The notes beneath the pieces are model-generated. The model made no database searches. It saw only the letters and a list, made by a program, of their open reading frames with translations, and was not told the DNA's origin. Source: an uncultured Gammaproteobacteria bacterium (GTDB taxonomy: Bacteria > Patescibacteriota > Microgenomatia > Daviesbacterales > UBA10151). Taken from it: a stretch of DNA of 64,000 nucleotides. Below are positions 4,094 to 58,741 of this stretch, one piece after another (positions within the stretch are counted from its first letter, which is position 1; the number at the start of each line of letters is the position of its first letter). The DNA lies in NCBI GenBank assembly GCA_964360965.1, contig CAYHYM010000002.1:1311-65310 (forward strand). The letters are read 5' to 3'. The position numbers and the translations under genes are program-made.

Positions 4094-4504
4094 TTAGCCA
4101 CCTACACCCCTGCCCATTTTTCGCTCAGCTAAGGTTCTGGCCCGAACTTCTTCCGGAAGAGGCTGTTTTTTCTTTTGTACCTCAAGCTGTTTGACCTGTT
4201 TCTTCTCTTGTTCTTGCTTGTCCCGAGCAATGTCAAGGGATTGCTGTTTTTCCCTGACTTTTCTTTGAGCCTCATCCAAATTTTTCCACCAGGCAATTTT
4301 TCTTCTGACCTCGGCCAATCCTTTCTGTTCCTGCTGCTGTTTTAAAAAGCTCTGCCTGGGGGTAAGTTTTGGTTGTGGCGGACCGGAGAAAACAGTCTGC
4401 GCTCCGATCTCAATGGCTTTACCCAGCTCATCAGCTGCAGGTTTTATTACAGCTTCCCCAATATCTTGCGGCAGTTGTCTAATAAATCCTTTGGAGTTTG
4501 GCAT
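4094..4504 (-). CDS. hypothetical charged, coiled-coil-rich protein
   Basis: ORF in the same orientation as the array. K/E/Q-rich C-terminal half. Confidence 0.45.
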   Translation of the reverse strand: MPNSKGFIRQLPQDIGEAVIKPAADELGKAIEIGAQTVFSGPPQPKLTPRQSFLKQQQEQKGLAEVRRKIAWWKNLDEAQRKVREKQQSLDIARDKQEQEKKQVKQLEVQKKKQPLPEEVRARTLAERKMGRGVGG

Positions 4505-4506
4505 AT

Positions 4507-5811
4507 TTAATTCTTTAACCCTTCCAGCAGTCCGGTAAATTTTTTGATATTTTCTGCTGAATTCTCAATTGGTCCCTGAATGGTTAAATTCAGTTTACTA
4601 AAATCCCAATATTTTTTCATAAAATTCATAATATCTTTCTTACTTACTCTTTCTATCATCTTAGCATATTCATCAGGTGTGTAAATTTTATCTTCCCATA
4701 ATAGATCACCCTCAATCCAACTGGCAATATTACCTGGATGATCAAACTGCATTAGTATTTGATTAACAGTATAATTTTTGGCAAAATTTAATTCTTCCTC
4801 TGTAGGACCATTTTCCAAAAAAGAAGTTAGTTCTTTTATGATCAGCTCCATCACTTCCTCTACCTTGTCAGGTGCTGTTTGGGTGGAGATATAAACATAG
4901 GCAAAATGTTCATAGGTAGTTGCTCCCATATCCACTCCATAAACTAAACCTCGCTGCAACCTTAATAATCTATACAACCTGCTTACCCTAAGTCTCCCTA
5001 AAATACTTCTGGCTATAGACTGAGGAACTTGCTTGAGGATTCCTTCAGAATCAGGGATGGTGGAAAAGCTTAAATCAATATAACAAGTATTTAAAGTTCT
5101 ATCCTCTCTAATAGCCACCCGTCTTCCTGTTAAATCCTTGTTAGTCAATTTGGGAAATCCGGGAAAAGTTTTACCAGGGAGATATTTGCTAAAAAACTTG
5201 TCTATTAACTCTTCAATAATACTGGTATCAAATCCCCCCACCACTACCAGATAGGTATTTTTAGGGTGAAAAAAAATAGACCAAAAATTAACTAGATCTT
5301 TTTTCTGTAATTTTTTAATTATCTCTTCTGATCCACCACTATCAAGTAAGAAAGGATGCCCTTTTTTATATCTTACTGATGAGAAAAATCTGCCTCTTTT
5401 ATACCAATCAGTACCCTGTCTTTGCCAAATTTCCTCCAGGATTGCCCCTCTTTCTTTTTCTATTCCTGTCTCTGGGAAAAGGGGCTTAAAAAACACTTCG
5501 TGTGAAACTTTTAACATATCCTCTAAATGATTTGCCGGACCATTAATATAAAACCTGATCATCTGCGGAGCAGTCATGGCATTAAAACTACCTGCCAAAC
5601 CCTCAATAAAGTTATAGATAGCTTCACTACTGCCAAAAGTAGGGGTACCTTCTATTAAAATATGCTCCATGAAATGAGCCAAGCCTGAAGTTTTAGGGGT
5701 ATCAAAAATTGAACCACCCTTAACAGACTCACTGATAAAAACAGACTTCATCTGTGGAATTGAATAAGTGGCAACTTTTAATCCATTTTTTAAAGTAAAA
5801 GTTTTTAACAT
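4507..5811 (-). CDS. M16 family zinc peptidase, second copy
   Basis: HFMEHILIEGT HxxEH motif. 434 aa. Paired with the upstream M16 gene, as M16 A/B subunits often are. Confidence 0.8.
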   Translation of the reverse strand: MLKTFTLKNGLKVATYSIPQMKSVFISESVKGGSIFDTPKTSGLAHFMEHILIEGTPTFGSSEAIYNFIEGLAGSFNAMTAPQMIRFYINGPANHLEDMLKVSHEVFFKPLFPETGIEKERGAILEEIWQRQGTDWYKRGRFFSSVRYKKGHPFLLDSGGSEEIIKKLQKKDLVNFWSIFFHPKNTYLVVVGGFDTSIIEELIDKFFSKYLPGKTFPGFPKLTNKDLTGRRVAIREDRTLNTCYIDLSFSTIPDSEGILKQVPQSIARSILGRLRVSRLYRLLRLQRGLVYGVDMGATTYEHFAYVYISTQTAPDKVEEVMELIIKELTSFLENGPTEEELNFAKNYTVNQILMQFDHPGNIASWIEGDLLWEDKIYTPDEYAKMIERVSKKDIMNFMKKYWDFSKLNLTIQGPIENSAENIKKFTGLLEGLKN

Positions 5812-6766: not shown

Positions 6767-7495
6767 TTATTGATATTGTTCAATTGCCAATTTTTTGGCT
6801 TCTTCCAAAATTTTTTCCTCACCGGGCAAAATTAGCCTTTGGGTTCTTTTAAAAGATGTTACCCCTCCATTTTGCACTTTTTGCCAAAAATCAATCTGCA
6901 ACTGATGCTCAACTGGCAATACCCTCTTTTGTAATGTTTCAGGGCTGTCATTATCCAAAATTTCCACCTGATGAGTCATCAAAAGTTCTCCCTGATCATA
7001 CTTCTTATTGACCTGATGAATGGTAGCTTCTGTTTGGAAGGGTCTTTTGATTCTTCTTGCAAAATTTAAAACTGCAGCGTGAACCCTTATTCCATACATT
7101 CCCACTCCCCCAAAATCAGGATAGCCTGGATCCAAGGGGCCTGGATGCTGATTAACAATTCTACCTTCAAACTGCTCAACCACATTTTCCGGAGTTAAAA
7201 CCATCCAGCCGTTTTGTGAAACCCAATTAACTTGATACTGGGCAAATTTATCAAGTAGAACCTGGCCATAACTTAAACGAGAAGCTTCCATATCCTCCAC
7301 CCCATCTTTTACCACCTTATATGGTGCTCTGGGCACAATCTCCACCTCCACCATCAATTTTTGAGCTTTTTCTACCACAGCTGCATCTTTATTATTGGTT
7401 ACCACCAACGCCACATCTACCTTCTTAGATTTGATAATGGCCTCAGTAGTGGTGCCTGAACCTGATGCCAAAATGGCCAACCTGATCTTTTCCAT
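6767..7495 (-). CDS. formyltransferase family protein (PurN/GART-like)
   Basis: N-terminal ILASGSGTT Rossmann start. NQHPGPLDP aligns with the PurN NIHPSLLP motif. Aligns with the PurN catalytic HxSLLP segment; no Asp-containing motif could be confirmed by eye. Confidence 0.55.
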   Translation of the reverse strand: MEKIRLAILASGSGTTTEAIIKSKKVDVALVVTNNKDAAVVEKAQKLMVEVEIVPRAPYKVVKDGVEDMEASRLSYGQVLLDKFAQYQVNWVSQNGWMVLTPENVVEQFEGRIVNQHPGPLDPGYPDFGGVGMYGIRVHAAVLNFARRIKRPFQTEATIHQVNKKYDQGELLMTHQVEILDNDSPETLQKRVLPVEHQLQIDFWQKVQNGGVTSFKRTQRLILPGEEKILEEAKKLAIEQYQ

Positions 7496-26682: not shown

Positions 26683-27765
26683 TTAGGGAATTTTACAATA
26701 AATTCCAGACCCTAAGTTTCTGACCACCCCTTTTATTTCCATTTTTAAAAGACCCGATGAAACCTCGGCTGCGCCAAGTTCCAAAATCCTGCATATTTCA
26801 TCTATGTGTTTATTATCATTTTGAAGACAATCAATTATTTTCTTTTCATTTTCGGAAAGATCTGAAACTTTAACCATCTCCTTTTTTACTCCCTCCATTC
26901 CCAACTCCTGTAAAATTTCAGATGAGTCAAAAACCGGCCTGGCCCCTTCTTTGATTAAAGACATTGGGCCTTTTGATAGATCAGAGGTGATTGGTCCTGG
27001 CACGGCAAAAACATCTCTTCCTTGTTCCAAAGCCAATCTGGCAGTAATCAAAGAACCGGAATCCTGAGCCGCCTCGGTTATCAAGACTGCCAAAGATAAC
27101 CCGGCTATAATACGGTTGCGGGAAGGGAAATTTCCGGCCAGAGAAGGATAATCAGGAGGATACTCGGAAATGACAGCCCCAAAACCTTCCGCAATTCTCT
27201 TTACCAGTTGGGTATTTTCAGCCGGAAAGATTTTATTTAACCCCCCACCCAAAACAGCCATAGTTCGGCCCTTCGGCAGGCTCAGAGCAGTCTTGTGCGC
27301 TTGAGTGTCAATCCCCCTGGCCAAACCTGAAACAATGGTAAAGCCTGACAGAACCAGATCACGGGTAAATTTTTCTGTTACCAGCTTGCCGTAACCAGTC
27401 ATTTTTCTGGTACCCACCACAGCAATGGCCCGATCATCCCCAGGTACAATCTCACCTTTATAGTACAAAACTATGGGAGAATCATAAATTTGTTTAAGTA
27501 AGTCAGGGTAGTTATCGTCAAAAATTGTTAACCAGGAAACACCCATCTTCTTAATAGACTCAGCATAAAGGATAGGATCCAGAATCTTTCTGGTTTCTGC
27601 CAAAAGATCCAAAACAGTTTGCGGCACCCCTATTTGTCTAATCTCCTTTAAATTAGCCTCCCAGGCCAGTTTCGGATCTTTAAAATAATCAATTATTGCC
27701 TTCAGCCTAATAGGACCTAGCCCATCAATACTATGCAGCGCCAAAAGATAAGCAATATTTTTCAT
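26683..27765 (-). CDS. dprA: DNA processing protein DprA (Smf)
   Basis: Rossmann-like DprA core GNFPSRNRIIAGLSLAVLITEAAQDSGSLITARLALEQGRDVFAVPG. Start placed at MKNIAY. Confidence 0.85.
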   Translation of the reverse strand: MKNIAYLLALHSIDGLGPIRLKAIIDYFKDPKLAWEANLKEIRQIGVPQTVLDLLAETRKILDPILYAESIKKMGVSWLTIFDDNYPDLLKQIYDSPIVLYYKGEIVPGDDRAIAVVGTRKMTGYGKLVTEKFTRDLVLSGFTIVSGLARGIDTQAHKTALSLPKGRTMAVLGGGLNKIFPAENTQLVKRIAEGFGAVISEYPPDYPSLAGNFPSRNRIIAGLSLAVLITEAAQDSGSLITARLALEQGRDVFAVPGPITSDLSKGPMSLIKEGARPVFDSSEILQELGMEGVKKEMVKVSDLSENEKKIIDCLQNDNKHIDEICRILELGAAEVSSGLLKMEIKGVVRNLGSGIYCKIP

Positions 27766-27793
27766 AATTACCAACTCTTAAGTGTAAAAGGTA

Positions 27794-27820
27794 CTCTTCA
27801 TTATATTCTCGGTCGAGAAC
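27794..27820 (-). promoter_or_regulatory. 27-bp palindrome-plus-TATAAT module, copy upstream of dprA
   Basis: Minus strand reads gTTCTCGaCCGAGAAtataatgaagag, about 30 nt before the dprA ATG. Identical to 28312-28338. Confidence 0.6.
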
Positions 27821-27828
27821 GTTTTGTA

Positions 27829-28311
27829 TCAAAACTTTATAGTACTCGACTCGAAAATACTTACCCATTCGTCTATTCCAACCTTTTTAATATACTCATT
27901 TAGTAGATCAGCACAATTCTTTTTGCTTACCCAAATGCTATTTTGAAACCTTATAAACCCTAATTGTTTTAATTGATGTCTTAATAAATCTCTGGCCTTT
28001 CTCCTTTTTTCTGGAATATCCCACATTATTATTCTCCATTTCCCATCCCATTTTTCATCCTCCAGTTTCATCTTTGCCCAAAGTGCCTTAGTCTTTCCCT
28101 CGTCAGTAATTCTAGCAGCTAGCTCTTCATCACTTATTAGTTCTACAAATCCATTTTCTCTAAGCCTTTTAAAAACAAGTGCCAGCTCTGATTTTTTAAC
28201 TGGTCTCTCTAACAAAGGATTGTGTATAAAATCATCAAACTTAACATAACCATCCACTGTTTTTTCTAAGGTTAGGAGAACTATTTTAGCCAAGCTATTT
28301 TTCTTATTCAT
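27829..28311 (-). CDS. small PaaX-like regulator: winged-helix N-domain plus Cas2-like C-domain
   Basis: C-terminal WRIIMWDIPEKRRKARDLLRHQLKQLGFIRFQNSIWVS follows the Cas2/PaaX-C pattern (YDI...RRR...L...G.R.QNSVF). Flanked by identical 27-bp modules. Confidence 0.55.
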   Translation of the reverse strand: MNKKNSLAKIVLLTLEKTVDGYVKFDDFIHNPLLERPVKKSELALVFKRLRENGFVELISDEELAARITDEGKTKALWAKMKLEDEKWDGKWRIIMWDIPEKRRKARDLLRHQLKQLGFIRFQNSIWVSKKNCADLLNEYIKKVGIDEWVSIFESSTIKF

Positions 28312-28338
28312 CTCTTCATTATATTCTCGGTCGAGAAC
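28312..28338 (-). promoter_or_regulatory. 27-bp palindrome-plus-TATAAT module, copy abutting the start codon of the PaaX/Cas2-like gene
   Basis: Identical 27-mer. The TATAAT lies 6 nt before the ATG, implying a leaderless transcript. Confidence 0.6.
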
Positions 28339-28407
28339 TTATTGTCAATACAGCATAACCATTCCCTCTTGACATCTGATAGGATAAGTTATTTAATACA
28401 GCTAATT

Positions 28408-29094
28408 ATGCCAGCAGAAGTTCCATTTAGCTTTAAATATACCAATCTGAGTGATAAGTTTTATTTAGAATCAAGAGTGGCTAGTAATCAAAAAGATCTT
28501 GAAGAAACATTAGAGCACATCCACATTGCTAGATATATGGCAGTCCAAGAAACTCAAGATATAGTAAAGGCTACTATGGAAGGGTGGATGGAAAGAACCC
28601 CTAGATCTACCTGGTGGGAACAAAAACCTACTAAAATGACTGCCTCTGTCAATGTTGACCTCCAGCATTTAGCTATAGCGGGCTGGAAATATTCAGGTCG
28701 TGAAGGACTATCCTTCCCTCCAGGAATAGAACCCTACAAACCTTATCTTCTACAACTGACGTATAGAAAGTATCCACAATATGCTAATAGAGATGTGGAT
28801 GAGGCTGTAATCATTAGATGGGAGCAAGCTGCTGTTGAGAGAAGAGCAGATTTAGAATTACTTCGCCTTAGGAGTAGTCGAGCTGAATTTAGCTTTAGAA
28901 ATGATAATGGACCTTTCTGGATGCTACAAGAAACTGCCAAGTGGATTAATTTTTTTGCGGCTGAAGCTGCAGTTAGAAACCCCGTCTTAGTAGATGATCC
29001 TGAATATGGTGAGGATGATGAGGCAACAATTATTTTTGAGAATAGAGATGTCGCAGTAGAAACCGCAACCTCACTCCCCCAAGGTTCTGGCTGA
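28408..29094 (+). CDS. hypothetical protein (Trp/Arg-rich)
   Basis: ORF with ATG at 28408. No motif recognised. Converges on the PBP2 gene. Confidence 0.45.
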   Translation: MPAEVPFSFKYTNLSDKFYLESRVASNQKDLEETLEHIHIARYMAVQETQDIVKATMEGWMERTPRSTWWEQKPTKMTASVNVDLQHLAIAGWKYSGREGLSFPPGIEPYKPYLLQLTYRKYPQYANRDVDEAVIIRWEQAAVERRADLELLRLRSSRAEFSFRNDNGPFWMLQETAKWINFFAAEAAVRNPVLVDDPEYGEDDEATIIFENRDVAVETATSLPQGSG

Positions 29095-48344: not shown

Positions 48345-48647
48345 GTGGCTTTTGGTATTAAGTTTAATGAGGAAAAAAATGAATTACTGAAAGCTACAAG
48401 AAAAGTTAGTTTTGAGGATGTCTTGGAGGCTTTCAAGGAAGAGAAACTGTTAGCTGATATTGCTCACCCAAGTCAAAAGCATCCTCATCAGAAATTATAT
48501 GTAATAGAAATTAAAGGGTATGCATATGCAGTTCCCTATGTTTTAGATACTAGAAAACAAGAAATATTTTTGAAAACAGTCTATCCAAGTAGAACGTTGA
48601 CAAAAATATATTTGAAAGGTGAAAAGTATGAAAAAAAGAAAAAGTAA
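48345..48647 (+). CDS. brnT: BrnT-like type II toxin (DUF497 ribonuclease)
   Basis: IKFNEEKNELLKATRKVSFEDVLEAF matches the BrnT signature FEWDE.KN..N..KHGVSFEEA. Confidence 0.7.
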   Translation: MAFGIKFNEEKNELLKATRKVSFEDVLEAFKEEKLLADIAHPSQKHPHQKLYVIEIKGYAYAVPYVLDTRKQEIFLKTVYPSRTLTKIYLKGEKYEKKKK

Positions 48648-48936
48648 TCTTTTTGATAATTTGCTTTTAGATAAGCAAGAAAAACTACTGGAAGAATCCT
48701 TGGAAAGAGGCGAATTTGAGGACAGTCCTAATTTTGAAAATACTAAGAGAATGTTGCAGGAAGCGGCAACCCGGTATTCGGAGTTGCATACTTCCAAACC
48801 AGTTACACTTAGGATCAACCAACTTGATTTAATTAAAATTAAAGCCAAAGCCAAACGAAAACAAATCCCCTATCAAACGCTGATCGGGGCTTTACTTCAT
48901 GAGTATGCTGTAGGAGAAAAAGATTTAAGTCTATAA
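48619..48936 (+). CDS. brnA: BrnA-like antitoxin
   Basis: C-terminal IKIKAKAKRKQIPYQTLIGALLHEYAVG matches the BrnA motif KAKA...GIPYQTLI..LH.YA.G. Overlaps brnT. Confidence 0.7.
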   Translation: MKSMKKRKSNLFDNLLLDKQEKLLEESLERGEFEDSPNFENTKRMLQEAATRYSELHTSKPVTLRINQLDLIKIKAKAKRKQIPYQTLIGALLHEYAVGEKDLSL

Positions 48937-48958
48937 TACCTTCCAACATAGTCCTTCG
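48931..48958. repeat. direct repeat copy 1 (ctataataccttccaacatagtScttcg)
   Basis: Starts at the brnA stop codon. Second copy at 49818-49847. Together they bracket the 49117-49653 gene. Confidence 0.7.
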
Positions 48959-49116: not shown

Positions 49117-49653
49117 TTACTCTGCTTTTTTTGCAATTTCCCTAGGTTGATCCAAGAAATCATCTCTTAACCATAATCCTCCTACCCGTAAAATGGTCTC
49201 GATATTTAAGGCATTTTTATAGACATATTCCTTGACTGGATTCATCATTGCATCTTCTTTTAGAGAAAGTAAAACATTCCTAGCTGTTTCTTGAACATCA
49301 TATTCTGTATAATCTTTTGGTAAAGAATTTTTAAGATTCTTCAATAAAAATTCTTTACTCTCATCAAGAATTTTCTCTAAGCCACTTTCTCTAATTAACA
49401 TTGCACCATATTCTGTAGGCTGTAACGGGCTACCTGGTGCCTCTGTTAGTAAATGATCTAACTGAATTCCAGCACTTCTGAAATAAGTTTGAATTTCGAT
49501 AATAGCATTGCCCATCCTCTTAATGGATCTACCTAGAGGATCGAGCTTACGATTCAAAATAATCACTATGAAAAAAGCTAGAATAAGAAATGGTGTAATA
49601 TTACTTGGGGTAATCCCCACATATTTTAGAAATTCAAAAATTTCACTTAACAT
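49117..49653 (-). CDS. hypothetical membrane-anchored protein, flanked by 28-30-bp direct repeats
   Basis: N-terminal TM (ITPFLILAFFIVIIL). No motif recognised. Confidence 0.5.
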   Translation of the reverse strand: MLSEIFEFLKYVGITPSNITPFLILAFFIVIILNRKLDPLGRSIKRMGNAIIEIQTYFRSAGIQLDHLLTEAPGSPLQPTEYGAMLIRESGLEKILDESKEFLLKNLKNSLPKDYTEYDVQETARNVLLSLKEDAMMNPVKEYVYKNALNIETILRVGGLWLRDDFLDQPREIAKKAE

Positions 49654-49817: not shown

Positions 49818-49847
49818 CTCTATAATACCTTCCAACATAGTGCTTCG
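49818..49847. repeat. direct repeat copy 2
   Basis: ctctataataccttccaacatagtgcttcg. Confidence 0.7.
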
Positions 49848-49938: not shown

Positions 49939-51252
49939 ATGGCTGATGATCCACCAAGAAAGCAGCATGAGCATGCCTCTTTGATTTTCCCCAAAGACTT
50001 TTTATGGGGAACTGCCACATCTGCCCATCAGGTAGAAGGGAACAACTTTTTTAATGATTGGTGGGACTGGGAAATACGCCATCAGCCTTTATCCATGCGC
50101 TCAGGGCGAGCCTGTGACCAATATCATTTATATGAAAAAGATTTTAATCTGGCCCGCTCTTTGGGCCATAATGCCCACAGGTTATCTATTGAATGGTCCA
50201 GGATAGAACCCGAAGAAGGAAAATTTGATGAGGCTGAAATTGAGCATTATGTTAAGTTACTTAAATACCTTAAATCGCTTAATTTTAAGGTGATGTTGAC
50301 TCTTTGGCACTTTACACTTCCGAAGTGGTTAGCAGATAGGGGTGGCTGGGAAAATGGTAAAACTGTTGATTATTTCATCAGATTTGTGGAAAAAATTGTA
50401 CCCAAACTAAAAGATGATATTGATCTATGGATCACCATCAATGAACCTGGAGTGGCTGTTTCTCAGGGGTATTTAGTGGCTGTTTGGCCTCCCCAAAAAA
50501 AGAGCAAATGGGCTGCTTTGAAAGCCTACTGGAATATGACCCAAGCTCACAAAAAAGCTTATAAAATCATCCATAGACTGGTACCAGACGCTCAAGTTGG
50601 TATAGCCAATAACCTAGCTTCTTTTGATGCCTTTCATCACCACTCGGTCTTAGAAGGAATCTCTGAATGGGGACTAGATATTATTAATAATCACCTATTT
50701 TATAAATTAACAGGCATGGGAACCCATGATTTTTTAGGCATTAACTATTACTTTAATCAGTATATTAGCTTCAGTGGCAAATCCAGATTTCCTTCCCTGG
50801 TTGATATCTCAACCACTAAAAAAGATGTTTCTGATATGGGATGGGAGATCTATCCGGAGGGGATGTTTGACATATTGATGGACTTTTCTGATTATCACAA
50901 ACCGATGTATATTACTGAAAATGGTTTGGCTTCTACCAATGATGATCGTAGGGTTAGGTTTTTACTCTCTTATCTTAAAGAAATTTATCATGCCATCCAA
51001 ACAGGAGCGGATGTGAAAGGATATTTTCATTGGAGTCTAATTGATAACTTTGAATGGACAGACGGCTTTACCCCCAGATTTGGTCTGATGGAAGTTGACT
51101 ATTCTACTCAGAAGCGTATTCCCAGACCCTCAGCTTATGTTTATCAAGAAATTATTAAGCATAATGGTATAGAACATAAAATGTTAAAACTACTTGGCCA
51201 TGGATTAAATGTAGAAGAGGAGCTAAAAAAGATGGCCAAAAAGGATCATTAA
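49939..51252 (+). CDS. glycoside hydrolase family 1 beta-glucosidase/beta-galactosidase
   Basis: GH1 N-terminal signature FLWGTATSAHQVEG. Acid/base region TINEP and nucleophile motif ITENG. Confidence 0.85.
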   Translation: MADDPPRKQHEHASLIFPKDFLWGTATSAHQVEGNNFFNDWWDWEIRHQPLSMRSGRACDQYHLYEKDFNLARSLGHNAHRLSIEWSRIEPEEGKFDEAEIEHYVKLLKYLKSLNFKVMLTLWHFTLPKWLADRGGWENGKTVDYFIRFVEKIVPKLKDDIDLWITINEPGVAVSQGYLVAVWPPQKKSKWAALKAYWNMTQAHKKAYKIIHRLVPDAQVGIANNLASFDAFHHHSVLEGISEWGLDIINNHLFYKLTGMGTHDFLGINYYFNQYISFSGKSRFPSLVDISTTKKDVSDMGWEIYPEGMFDILMDFSDYHKPMYITENGLASTNDDRRVRFLLSYLKEIYHAIQTGADVKGYFHWSLIDNFEWTDGFTPRFGLMEVDYSTQKRIPRPSAYVYQEIIKHNGIEHKMLKLLGHGLNVEEELKKMAKKDH

Positions 51253-57389: not shown

Positions 57390-57427
57390 CACCACTATAG
57401 TGGTGAGCGAGCGAAGCGAGTCGAACC

Positions 57428-57850
57428 ATGGCTAAGAAAGTTAAAACTTATATTAAATTAAACATTCCGGCAGGACTAGCCACTGCTGCCCCGCCTGTGG
57501 GACCGGCTTTGGGCCAGCATGGTTTGCCCATCATGGAGTTTGTCAAAGCTTTTAATGAAAGAACTGCAGAAAAACAGGGCAATATCTTGCCTGTAGTAAT
57601 CACAGTTTATGAGGATCGGACTTTTTCCTTTATCACCAAACAGCCACCTGTGGCTGAAATGATCAAAAAAGCCCTGAGTTTGGAAAAAGGATCCGGAAAA
57701 GCTTTAAAAGAACCTGTGGGGAGTATAACTCATACTCAAGTTGAGCAAATTGCCCGCTCCAAAATGCCGGATTTAAATACTAGAAATCTTGAGGCTGCCA
57801 CAAAAATTGTGGAGGGAACAGCCAGATCAATGGGGGTTAAAGTACAGTAA
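57428..57850 (+). CDS. rplK: 50S ribosomal protein L11
   Basis: [25 protein letters not shown] is the canonical uL11 N-terminus. Confidence 0.9.
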
Positions 57851-57904
57851 ATGAAAGGAGAACCCTTCGTCCTGAGTTAGTCGAAGGACGAAGTGAGTCG
57901 AACC

Positions 57905-58741
57905 ATGGGTAAAACTAAAATTAAAATAATAGATGATTCTGCTGCGGTTGGTAGACAAGATGAGTTGGTGGAAAAATTAAAAACAGAACTGGGAATAAAA
58001 GATGTACAGCAAAAGAATGGTAAGCCGGCAAAGTCTGAGTCAGCCAAAGCAATGGGTGAAGTTAATGACAAGACTAAAAAAGCCCAAAAGACTGGCAAAG
58101 CCAAACCCAGATCTAAAAAATACCAGGAACTGGTCAAAGATCTGGACAGATCCAAAACTTATCCTATTCCGGAAGCAGTTGACATGGTTAAAAAATTGTC
58201 CTATGCTAAATTTAATGGGACCTTAGAAGCTCATATAAATACCGCACAAACGGGGATCGCTGGTTACGTCTCCTTACCCTATGCGTCCGGCAAGAAACTT
58301 AGCATTTTAGCTTTTGGCCCTCTGCCCTCGCCCGAGGAATATGAAGGAGTAAGTTTTGGTGATGATTCAACCATAGAATCCATTTCCCAGGGTAAGGTGG
58401 ATATTGATTTGATAATAACTACTCCCGAATGGATGCCTAAACTTGCCAAAGTAGCCAAAATTTTAGGACCTAGGGGTTTAATGCCCAGCCCCAAAAATGG
58501 CACAATAACTGATGACATTAAGAAAACTGTAGAGTCCTTCCAAACCGGAAAAACAGAGTATAAAACAGAACCTAAGACCCCCATTATCCATCTGGCTCTG
58601 GGGAAATTAGACCAACCAAATGAGGAACTTGAGGCCAATGTTAAAATTCTGCTTTCTACTTTGGGCAAAACCAGAGTTAAAAAGGTATCTTTATCCCCCA
58701 CCATGGGACCATCTGTTAAGGTGGATTTAGCTTCTGTGTAA
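57905..58741 (+). CDS. rplA: 50S ribosomal protein L1 with a ~70-aa Lys-rich N-terminal extension
   Basis: uL1 core starts at KKYQELVKDLDRSKTYPIPEAV. Start placed at the ccATGG context shared with rplK. Confidence 0.85.
   Translation: MGKTKIKIIDDSAAVGRQDELVEKLKTELGIKDVQQKNGKPAKSESAKAMGEVNDKTKKAQKTGKAKPRSKKYQELVKDLDRSKTYPIPEAVDMVKKLSYAKFNGTLEAHINTAQTGIAGYVSLPYASGKKLSILAFGPLPSPEEYEGVSFGDDSTIESISQGKVDIDLIITTPEWMPKLAKVAKILGPRGLMPSPKNGTITDDIKKTVESFQTGKTEYKTEPKTPIIHLALGKLDQPNEELEANVKILLSTLGKTRVKKVSLSPTMGPSVKVDLASV

Follow-up and report, generated by a model that had tools for sequence, protein, structure and literature searches.

The closest described relative of the regulator analysed here is PaaX (E. 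coli W, PDB 8a39; Jannaschia, 3l09), a repressor of paa operons that responds to phenylacetyl-CoA. PaaX represses its own promoter by steric hindrance of RNA polymerase and binds dyad-symmetric DNA, the E. coli operator being TGATTC-N27-GAATCA (PMC9493321). Local autorepressors of the MarR/PadR type are small dimeric winged helix-turn-helix (wHTH) proteins; they control the neighbouring gene and bind a palindrome that overlaps their own promoter. The competence gene dprA is regulated by ComX/sigma-X in streptococci, by ComK in Bacillus and by CRP-Sxy in Haemophilus. To our knowledge, almost nothing is known of transcriptional regulation in the candidate phyla radiation (CPR)/Patescibacteria, and we found no literature linking PaaX-like proteins with CPR bacteria or dealing with leaderless promoters in Patescibacteria. 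Here we analyse a 64-kb stretch of DNA (64,000 nucleotides; the window) from a Patescibacteria/Daviesbacteria-type (CPR) bacterium of Hainich groundwater well H51, in which the gene of a 160-aa PaaX-like protein lies directly upstream of dprA and an identical putative promoter-operator module precedes both genes. The collective evidence suggests that the small protein is probably an autoregulated local repressor that also controls dprA, and that its gene belongs to a bracketed layout in which the operator and the downstream gene are group-specific.

The module is a 27-mer, GTTCTCGACCGAGAATATAATGAAGAG in minus-strand sense, present at 27794-27820 and 28312-28338 with 0 mismatches in both copies; the repeat stretches further to 34 nt with an identity of 32/34 (27794-27827 / 28312-28345). 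Its upstream copy adjoins the ATG (28311) of the regulator open reading frame (ORF) and carries a candidate promoter, P1, with no space for Shine-Dalgarno sequence. Its downstream counterpart starts 9 nt past the regulator stop codon and finishes 28 nt short of the dprA ATG (27765), in agreement with the first-pass annotation, which had noted identical copies directly 5′ of the regulator ATG and about 30 nt before dprA. Of the 14-bp palindrome plus perfect TATAAT described there, the TATAAT stands and the dyad, TTCTCG-AC-CGAGAA, needs to be restated as strictly 6+2+6, with a central AC that lacks self-complementarity. No third copy of the 27-mer exists in the 64 kb at up to 3 mismatches (0 expected), and dinucleotide-preserving shuffles (n=100) gave 0 matches. 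With up to 2 mismatches allowed, TTCTCGNNCGAGAA has two sites only in the window, both within the 27-mer copies. The window contains nine cores of the form CG[AG][TC]CG, and palindromic arms occur in just two of them, the module sites O1 (upstream of the regulator) and O2 (downstream of it). Three independent assemblies of the locus (L001-L003; L numbers denote loci and contigs throughout) hold both module copies, and an assembly artefact is therefore excluded. The O1-O2 fragment of the window measures 518 bp. Table 1 collects the features.

Table 1. Features of the regulator-dprA locus, in window positions.
Feature	Position	Strand	Basis and remarks
-35 hexamer TTGACA of P1	28343..28348	-	Sequence; perfect; 9 nt upstream of CGACCG core
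Operator O1, TTCTCG-AC-CGAGAA	28324..28337	-	Sequence; last 14 nt of the 19-nt -35/-10 spacer
-10 hexamer TATAAT of P1	28318..28323	-	Sequence; followed by GAAGAG (28312-28317) and ATG 28311
Mini-PaaX regulator ORF, 160 aa	27829..28311	-	Pfam PaaX_M and predicted fold
Operator O2, identical TTCTCG-AC-CGAGAA	27806..27819	-	Sequence; core 13 nt past regulator stop codon
Second TATAAT (27800-27805) + GAAGAG, candidate dprA promoter P2	27794..27805	-	Sequence
dprA	26683..27765	-	PF02481 E 2.4e-76, DprA_WH, TIGR00732

The 160-aa protein is matched by PaaX_M (PF20803, the central Cas2-like domain) over residues 86-158 with an E value of 1.3e-24 and 86.6 bits, the cut-off being 24. Over the same region it also attracts Cas2 models: NCBIfam cas2 scores 29.0 bits (cut-off 24.5; residues 92-142), Pfam CRISPR_Cas2 scores 23.0 bits, under its cut-off of 23.8, and the PADLOC Cas2 models match weakly (E 2.6e-7). 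The residues matching Cas2 are also covered by the far stronger PaaX_M match. Scans of the regulator against Pfam, NCBIfam and PADLOC gave nothing besides PaaX_M and Cas2; the Pfam model of the PaaX N-terminal domain did not match, and the TIGR02277 score reached 32.3 bits compared to a cut-off of 264.55, the protein ending at residue 160. Passing the NCBIfam cas2 cut-off constitutes an annotation hazard, for CPR genes of this kind could receive an orphan-Cas2 label from automated pipelines. In an AlphaFold model based on an alignment of 28 sequences (pLDDT, the predicted local distance difference test score, of 78), residues 3-68 have an H-beta-H-H-beta-beta topology. The top PDB match of the model in Foldseek is E. 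coli PaaX (8a39; E 3e-5, 161 aligned columns); below it, the N-terminal half matches MarR/PadR regulators and the C-terminal half matches Cas2. The same picture emerges from a profile search against PDB sequences, the N-terminal half resembling MarR/PadR weakly by sequence. As modelled, the regulator is a two-domain mini-PaaX, composed of a predicted wHTH and a Cas2-like dimerisation domain, without an effector domain. The Cas2-like fold proposed at the outset and, with it, a helix-turn-helix are thus both found in the structural prediction; a Cas2-like fold acting outside CRISPR is, as a novelty, forestalled by PaaX, for which it is already established (PF20803; 8a39). The two-domain family is large, comprising 598 clusters at 50% identity (E<=1e-10), mostly of 160-200 aa.

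Relationship with PaaX, whose family models are PF07848, PF20803, PF08223 and TIGR02277, is therefore one of shared N-terminal wHTH and Cas2-like middle domain, and the differences are several. PaaX has about 305-316 aa and a C-terminal phenylacetyl-CoA effector domain, whereas the window protein lacks that domain at 160 aa. The PaaX operator is split, whereas that of the window is a compact, CGNNCG-centred palindrome, and TGATTC-N25-29-GAATCA has 0 matches in the window. PaaX has paa operon context; no paa genes lie near the window regulator, which differs furthermore in its two-operator bracket, its apparently leaderless promoter and the several paralogues per genome. Compared to the MarR/PadR autorepressors, which dimerise through helices and use a divergent intergenic operator, the present family has the Cas2-like dimerisation domain and a second operator at the 3′ end of its own gene. 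The likeness to Cas2/VapD includes the NCBIfam cas2 score and an invariant Asp98, which aligns with the Asp ending Cas2 strand beta-1; the window protein differs by its fusion to a wHTH. Among the 28 aligned family members there is no invariant His or Tyr. Association with CRISPR was considered and rejected: there is no CRISPR-like array in the 64-kb window, no cas domain in the genes called round the locus, and the weak PADLOC Cas2 matches fall only over PaaX_M. The initial statement that cas1 and an array are both absent stands for the array in the window; cas1 was not searched exhaustively, and the neighbours of more than 50 related loci are housekeeping genes.

The anatomy of the window locus recurs across the family. 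Sixty related loci were taken from reference genomes and their upstream regions aligned at the start codon; operators were counted over 51 family loci and promoter spacing over the 46 that could be scored. Nearly all loci present the same order of elements, namely TTGACA, about 9 nt, a palindrome centred on CG[AG][TC]CG, an A/T-rich -10, about 6 nt, and ATG. The O1 core lies within 45 nt upstream of the start in 48/51 loci (mostly at -21/-22) and an O2 core within 50 nt past the stop codon in 43/51 (mostly at +12/+13), the background of such cores in the same sequences being about 0.7 per kb. TTGACA, with 0-2 mismatches, stands 9 nt from the core in 38 of the 46 loci. The -35/-10 spacer is 18-19 nt in 29/46, over a full range of 16-22 nt, and the estimate hinges on which A/T-rich hexamer counts as the -10; a strict MerR-like spacer of 19 nt is thus only partly true of the family. 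Saccharibacteria and Berkelbacteria PaaX_M proteins (30-40% identity) have the bracket also: in L058, TTTCTCGACCGAGAAA stands ahead of the ATG and is repeated from the stop codon onward; in L056, a 21-mer containing TTGGTCGATCGACCAA is common to both bracket positions; and the downstream sites of L062, L063 and L055 are perfect palindromes of 46, 32 and 38 nt. On this evidence, a gene between two putative operators is what characterises a large, hitherto undescribed family of local CPR regulators. Autoregulation, as first proposed, is favoured by an operator placed inside the regulator's own apparent promoter, in a layout found in 46-48 of about 50 family loci.

The distance from the -10 to the start codon has its mode at 6 nt family-wide. 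This promoter geometry puts the predicted transcription start at or next to the ATG and thus implies leaderless mRNAs, in line with the early suggestion for the regulator. As a separate observation on the window at large, a GGAG/GAGG/AGGA core at -18 to -5 is found in 9/67 of the non-overlapping ORFs of at least 100 aa, and several ORFs have a TAnnnT hexamer 5-8 nt before the start (e.g., at 48345: TTGACA/17 nt/TACTAT/6 nt/GTG). Leaderless or Shine-Dalgarno-independent initiation may be common in this genome.

Within each locus, O2 resembles the O1 of the same locus over about 35 nt, and the common sequence varies among loci. Arm identity over the 6+6 positions amounts to 8.8/12 within a locus versus 4.7/12 across loci, and identity of the outer flanks to 11.4/16 within versus 8.1/16 between; 0/10,000 permutations reach either value. 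Near-exact second copies, as in the window, are found in 13 loci, and the longest perfect repeats (35-36 nt; L015, L044) end at the ATG and resume at the stop codon. In L014/L016 and in the clade whose downstream gene is pepN, O1 differs from O2 and the differences are kept between species, which indicates that both sites are old and under selection. Exact pairs such as that of the window therefore probably reflect occasional homogenisation; the O2 of L015 has been homogenised to its O1, unlike the sites of its clade-mates. The core-to-core spacing of O1 and O2 is 518-560 bp, and the position of O2 is fixed to the regulator stop codon (+11 to +14 in most loci), not to the next gene.

Subfamilies are distinguished by their downstream gene and operator. 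The downstream gene is dprA in the window and 13 further loci, an M1 aminopeptidase (pepN) in 12, a Mur-ligase-like protein in 4 and elongation factor P (EF-P) in 2-3; others are ZIP, CDF and EamA transporters, NIF3 and a methyltransferase. The operator reads TTCTCG..CGAGAA in the dprA subgroup of the window, TCCTCCG..CGTGGTA with pepN and TACCxACGGCCGTGATAA with the Mur ligase. The nearest relatives of a protein share its genomic context and operator type and come from different genomes. Grouping by context and not by genome implies vertically inherited orthologous groups, each with its own operator class, and the idea of concerted evolution or recent cassette exchange, by which similarity would go by genome, was rejected. 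There are several paralogues per genome, 50-75% identical, of which the window has one; L054 contains a second, tandem family member at 986-1504, 3 kb upstream, with its own O1. To judge from the genes that follow the bracket, the family is not competence-specific. The pepN-linked L005, L006, L013, L015 and L007 also have a conserved sequence in common, ...ggactggaca.g.gat.g.gatttaggtaaagtaccaaa..., located 40-110 nt past the regulator stop codon, after O2 and before the M1-peptidase gene; it could be the real promoter of the peptidase or a leader RNA element.

The linkage of regulator and dprA is kept in at least 13 further reference genomes (L004, L008, L011, L012, L014, L016, L017, L019, L021, L027, L029, L030, L033) and in metagenome contigs too (L069, L074, L080, L086), the latter from a scan with TTCTCGRYCGAGAATATAAT that gave 26 contigs. 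L080 and L086 have the order O1-regulator-O2-dprA as in the window, with exact double modules, and in both copies of L080 the module reads TATAAT-gaagtt-ATG, leading once into the regulator and once into dprA. L068 presents the window synteny mreC-mreD-pbp2-X-dprA without the regulator gene, and its dprA (DprA 68% identical to that of the window) has a single complete module, TTGATA, 19 nt, TATAAT, 6 nt, ATG. In L027, a small convergent helix-turn-helix gene (XRE-like; 4540-4800, minus strand) separates dprA from the regulator, and dprA is preceded by a complete module of its own that includes the exact 14-mer of the window. The dprA modules of L068 and L027 can be summarised as TTGA(T/C)A / 19 nt / TATAAT / 6 nt / ATG. 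The cases of L080, L068 and L027, with their module at leaderless distance, argue that the module before dprA is a working promoter-operator in the subclade of the window, as judged from its architecture, and together with the conserved linkage they favour co-regulation of dprA as first proposed.

Based on these arrangements, the mechanism envisaged is one of occlusion. The mini-PaaX dimer, formed via the Cas2-like domain as in PaaX, would bind TTCTCG-NN-CGAGAA. Bound to O1 in the spacer between -35 and -10, it would exclude RNA polymerase and so exert negative autoregulation on a transcript that would start at the ATG or within 1-2 nt of it and hence be leaderless. The same protein on O2 would gate dprA, either through repression of P2 or through blockage of read-through from P1. 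What we infer is that the protein binds DNA and represses, that P1 and P2 are active as promoters, that the transcript starts without a leader and that some signal relieves binding.

A number of features weigh against this reading, and several of them speak for an alternative in which O2 is an operator and not a promoter. On that alternative, regulator and dprA are co-transcribed from P1, and O2 serves as a roadblock or in an O1-O2 loop of the approximately 520-bp gene, thereby tightening autoregulation and setting the read-through into dprA; the TATAAT at O2 would be a passenger of the duplication. A -35 is generally missing from O2, the place of its "TTG" being taken by the stop codon. This holds for most loci including the window, where that codon is TGA, P2 is without a good -35 and a P2 mRNA would give dprA a leader of about 27 nt. 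At least 9 Daviesbacteria loci and most Saccharibacteria loci keep O2 although their next gene is convergent, and O2 can therefore not be solely the promoter of the downstream gene. In the pepN clade a promoter at O2 would be weakened by the conserved substitution of TACAAA for TACATT in its -10; the -10-like element of O2 is overlapped in L029 and L016 by the ATG of the next gene, which is incompatible with a promoter role there. The placement of O2 relative to the stop codon and the confined O1-O2 spacing fit the operator-only explanation as well. Against it stand the perfect TATAAT kept before dprA in the window's subclade, the TATAAT of L080 exactly 6 nt from the dprA ATG and, hard to accommodate unless the module is a working promoter, the dprA genes of L068 and L027, which have the full module with -35 and no regulator immediately upstream. 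The operator-only explanation is considered rather less likely than the main reading. The first-pass annotation had taken the identical duplication to suggest co-regulation; as the bracket is family-wide and kept before convergent genes, duplication alone is no proof of it.

Further difficulties for the repressor reading concern recognition and signal. The operator arms are variable, yet the predicted recognition helix, KKSxLxxxLKRLRE, hardly changes among the proteins. A simple code between recognition helix and operator was rejected: comparison of helix H3 and wing with the arms in 52 proteins showed no obvious residue-base correlation, co-variation being visible at clade level only. Without an effector domain, moreover, the regulator has no evident signal input. 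A simple operator would not usually be a perfect palindrome of 30-46 nt, as some O2 sites are. Such long dyads are in character for the protein type, considering the TGATTC-N27-GAATCA bound by E. coli PaaX. The long perfect palindromes, centred on CGATCG, CGGTCG or CGGCCG, are at L062 ~4400-4450, L063 ~2825-2860 and L055 ~4280-4320, with others at L017 ~4497-4526 and at the O1 of L048/L050; the 46-nt site after the Saccharibacteria gene of L062 reads CCCCATTGCTCCATTTTCGTCGA-TCGACGAAAATGGAGCAATGGGG. Hairpin or cruciform formation, or an extended PaaX-style footprint, is possible for these sites. The option of O2 as an intrinsic terminator was rejected: the fold of 27770-27850 (minus strand) is -13 kcal/mol, with z = -0.46 relative to shuffles and no U-tract, and a terminator consensus scan did not call the O2 region.

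The direct repeats could alternatively be footprints of gene movement rather than products of selection for regulation, the regulator gene spreading into promoters that carry its own operator and recombination between 27-35-nt modules, by which the ORF would leave or enter together with one module, interconverting occupied (module-ORF-module-target) and empty (module-target) loci. Repeats that bracket the ORF precisely, with perfect identity of up to 35-36 nt (L015, L044, L020), would be explained, as would the mreC-mreD-pbp2-X-dprA synteny that exists both occupied (window, L080, L086) and empty (L068), the solo modules with the same operator ahead of other genes (see below), the several paralogues with the tandem pair in L054, and the homogenisation of O2 to O1 in L015, not seen in its clade-mates. 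We nevertheless consider gene movement unlikely. The protein phylogeny tracks genomic context across genomes, as expected of old vertical orthologous groups, and the species-conserved differences between O1 and O2 speak for selection having acted on both sites over a long time. We found no two close genomes differing just by gene presence, the DprA of L068 having no more than 68% identity, and the protein has no recombinase or transposase motif and no invariant His or Tyr. An insertion sequence or mobile cassette of IS200/IS605 type was rejected on similar grounds: no HUH+Tyr, DDE or Ser/Tyr recombinase motif was found, and the window has one copy, with no near-identical copies at variable positions. 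A bolder version, to which we assign little credence, understands the mini-PaaX gene as a self-propagating regulatory cassette whose excised ORF plus module re-enters promoters with the same operator. If true, the cassette would turn regulons into new regulator/target pairs and would explain occupied and empty dprA loci, solo modules and paralogues. In a stronger form, offered as an idea, Asp98 would reflect retained nuclease activity at the CGRYCG core that promotes movement.

It is decidedly unlikely, in our estimate, that the protein is an activator, with the palindrome in an over-long 19-nt spacer effecting a MerR-type realignment of -35 and -10, and at O2 replacing the -35. The operator does fill the spacer exactly, the window spacer of 19 nt and the family's commonest values of 18-19 nt suit such a mechanism, and O2 sites without -35 would need help in firing. 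The spacers vary from 16 to 22 nt depending on the choice of -10, however, the protein is not MerR-like, and PaaX, the nearest relative to have been characterised, represses in competition with RNA polymerase. Chance or assembly-generated duplication without function, for which only the mutual resemblance of A/T-rich promoters could be adduced, has practically no probability in view of 0/100 shuffles, a pair identical in three assemblies and like anatomy in more than 40 loci of many genomes and several phyla.

Returning to the reading of a local repressor, the question arises how far its control extends beyond dprA. The annotation at the outset had pictured a regulon of DNA uptake and processing, with further palindromes to be sought before com and pilus genes. 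Within the window there is no other copy of the palindrome beyond O1 and O2 (up to 2 mismatches), at com, pilus or any other genes; sister subfamilies precede M1 peptidase, Mur-type ligase, EF-P and metal transporters; and the solo sites of the metagenomes precede unrelated genes, none recognisable as com or pilus genes. Solo modules, having the same operator and -35 spacing, lie upstream of EF-P (L082, L083), an RDD protein (L087), a DUF378 protein (L071, L079), unknown membrane proteins (L065, L066) and an unknown 180-aa protein (L070), in contigs (L065 and L070 from the same sample as the window) that may or may not come from genomes encoding a TTCTCG-type regulator. The scan matches of L075, L076, L081 and L088 fall inside a coding region and probably have no connection with the module. 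In the 4-kb sequences flanking the reference loci there are 7 extra palindromic cores, namely 3 inside long coding regions, 2 that are O1/O2 sites, the dprA module of L027 and the tandem paralogue of L054; solo operators are thus rare. The competence regulon was rejected on these findings: there is no evidence of a wider one, and the layout appears as a family signature, not a special competence switch. Control of dprA would thus be dedicated, as in the systems known, but exerted by the operator of a local, adjacent mini-PaaX instead of a global competence regulator, with no other competence genes found to carry the operator of the window.

Two of the scanned contigs offer an observation apart. 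In L067 (~549-600) and L078 (~6991-7040), a GC-rich stretch that is conserved and has no ORF (ggcggtagattaattagttggac(t/c)tc(g/t)ggttcta) comes after a solo operator-TATAAT module. Rfam and ARAGORN returned nothing for the stretch, which may be an unclassified small RNA.

The neighbours of the regulator in the window are dprA, genes for penicillin-binding protein 2 (PBP2) and mreCD, and a Clp-type ATPase. Its divergent neighbour (28408-29094, plus strand) encodes a 228-aa protein that is present in all assemblies of the locus and has no Pfam, NCBIfam or PADLOC match; a promoter-like TTGACA (28369-28374), 17 nt, TTTAAT ahead of the gene is positioned back to back with P1. Two other repeats of the window deserve mention. 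A 29-nt direct repeat with TATAAT, TCTATAATACCTTCCAACATAGT[C/G]CTTCG, is 28/29 identical between 48930-48958 and 49819-49847 (plus strand) and flanks an 861-nt segment with a 178-aa minus-strand ORF (49117-49653; no Pfam match), the second copy being about 90 nt upstream of a GH1 glycosidase gene (49939-51252); this looks like another promoter duplication round an inserted gene. A 24-nt repeat, CGAAG[C/T]GAGTCGAACCATGG[C/G]TAA, at 57412-57435 and 57889-57912 (plus strand) spans the start codons of the adjacent genes of ribosomal proteins L11 (57428-57850) and L1 (57893-58741) and may be a shared element of translational control or initiation.

For the biology of these bacteria, the analysis suggests that CPR proteins liable to be labelled "Cas2" or "PaaX" are neither CRISPR components nor phenylacetate regulators. 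A large family gains a testable model that specifies, for every orthologous group, a predicted operator and a target gene (among them dprA, pepN, efp and a Mur-type ligase), together with a promoter architecture and a leaderless start. The gene bracketed by its own putative operators, as encountered from Daviesbacteria to Saccharibacteria, is an unusual regulatory design, and in the case of dprA it would place a local control element on a competence gene in organisms thought to depend on DNA uptake.

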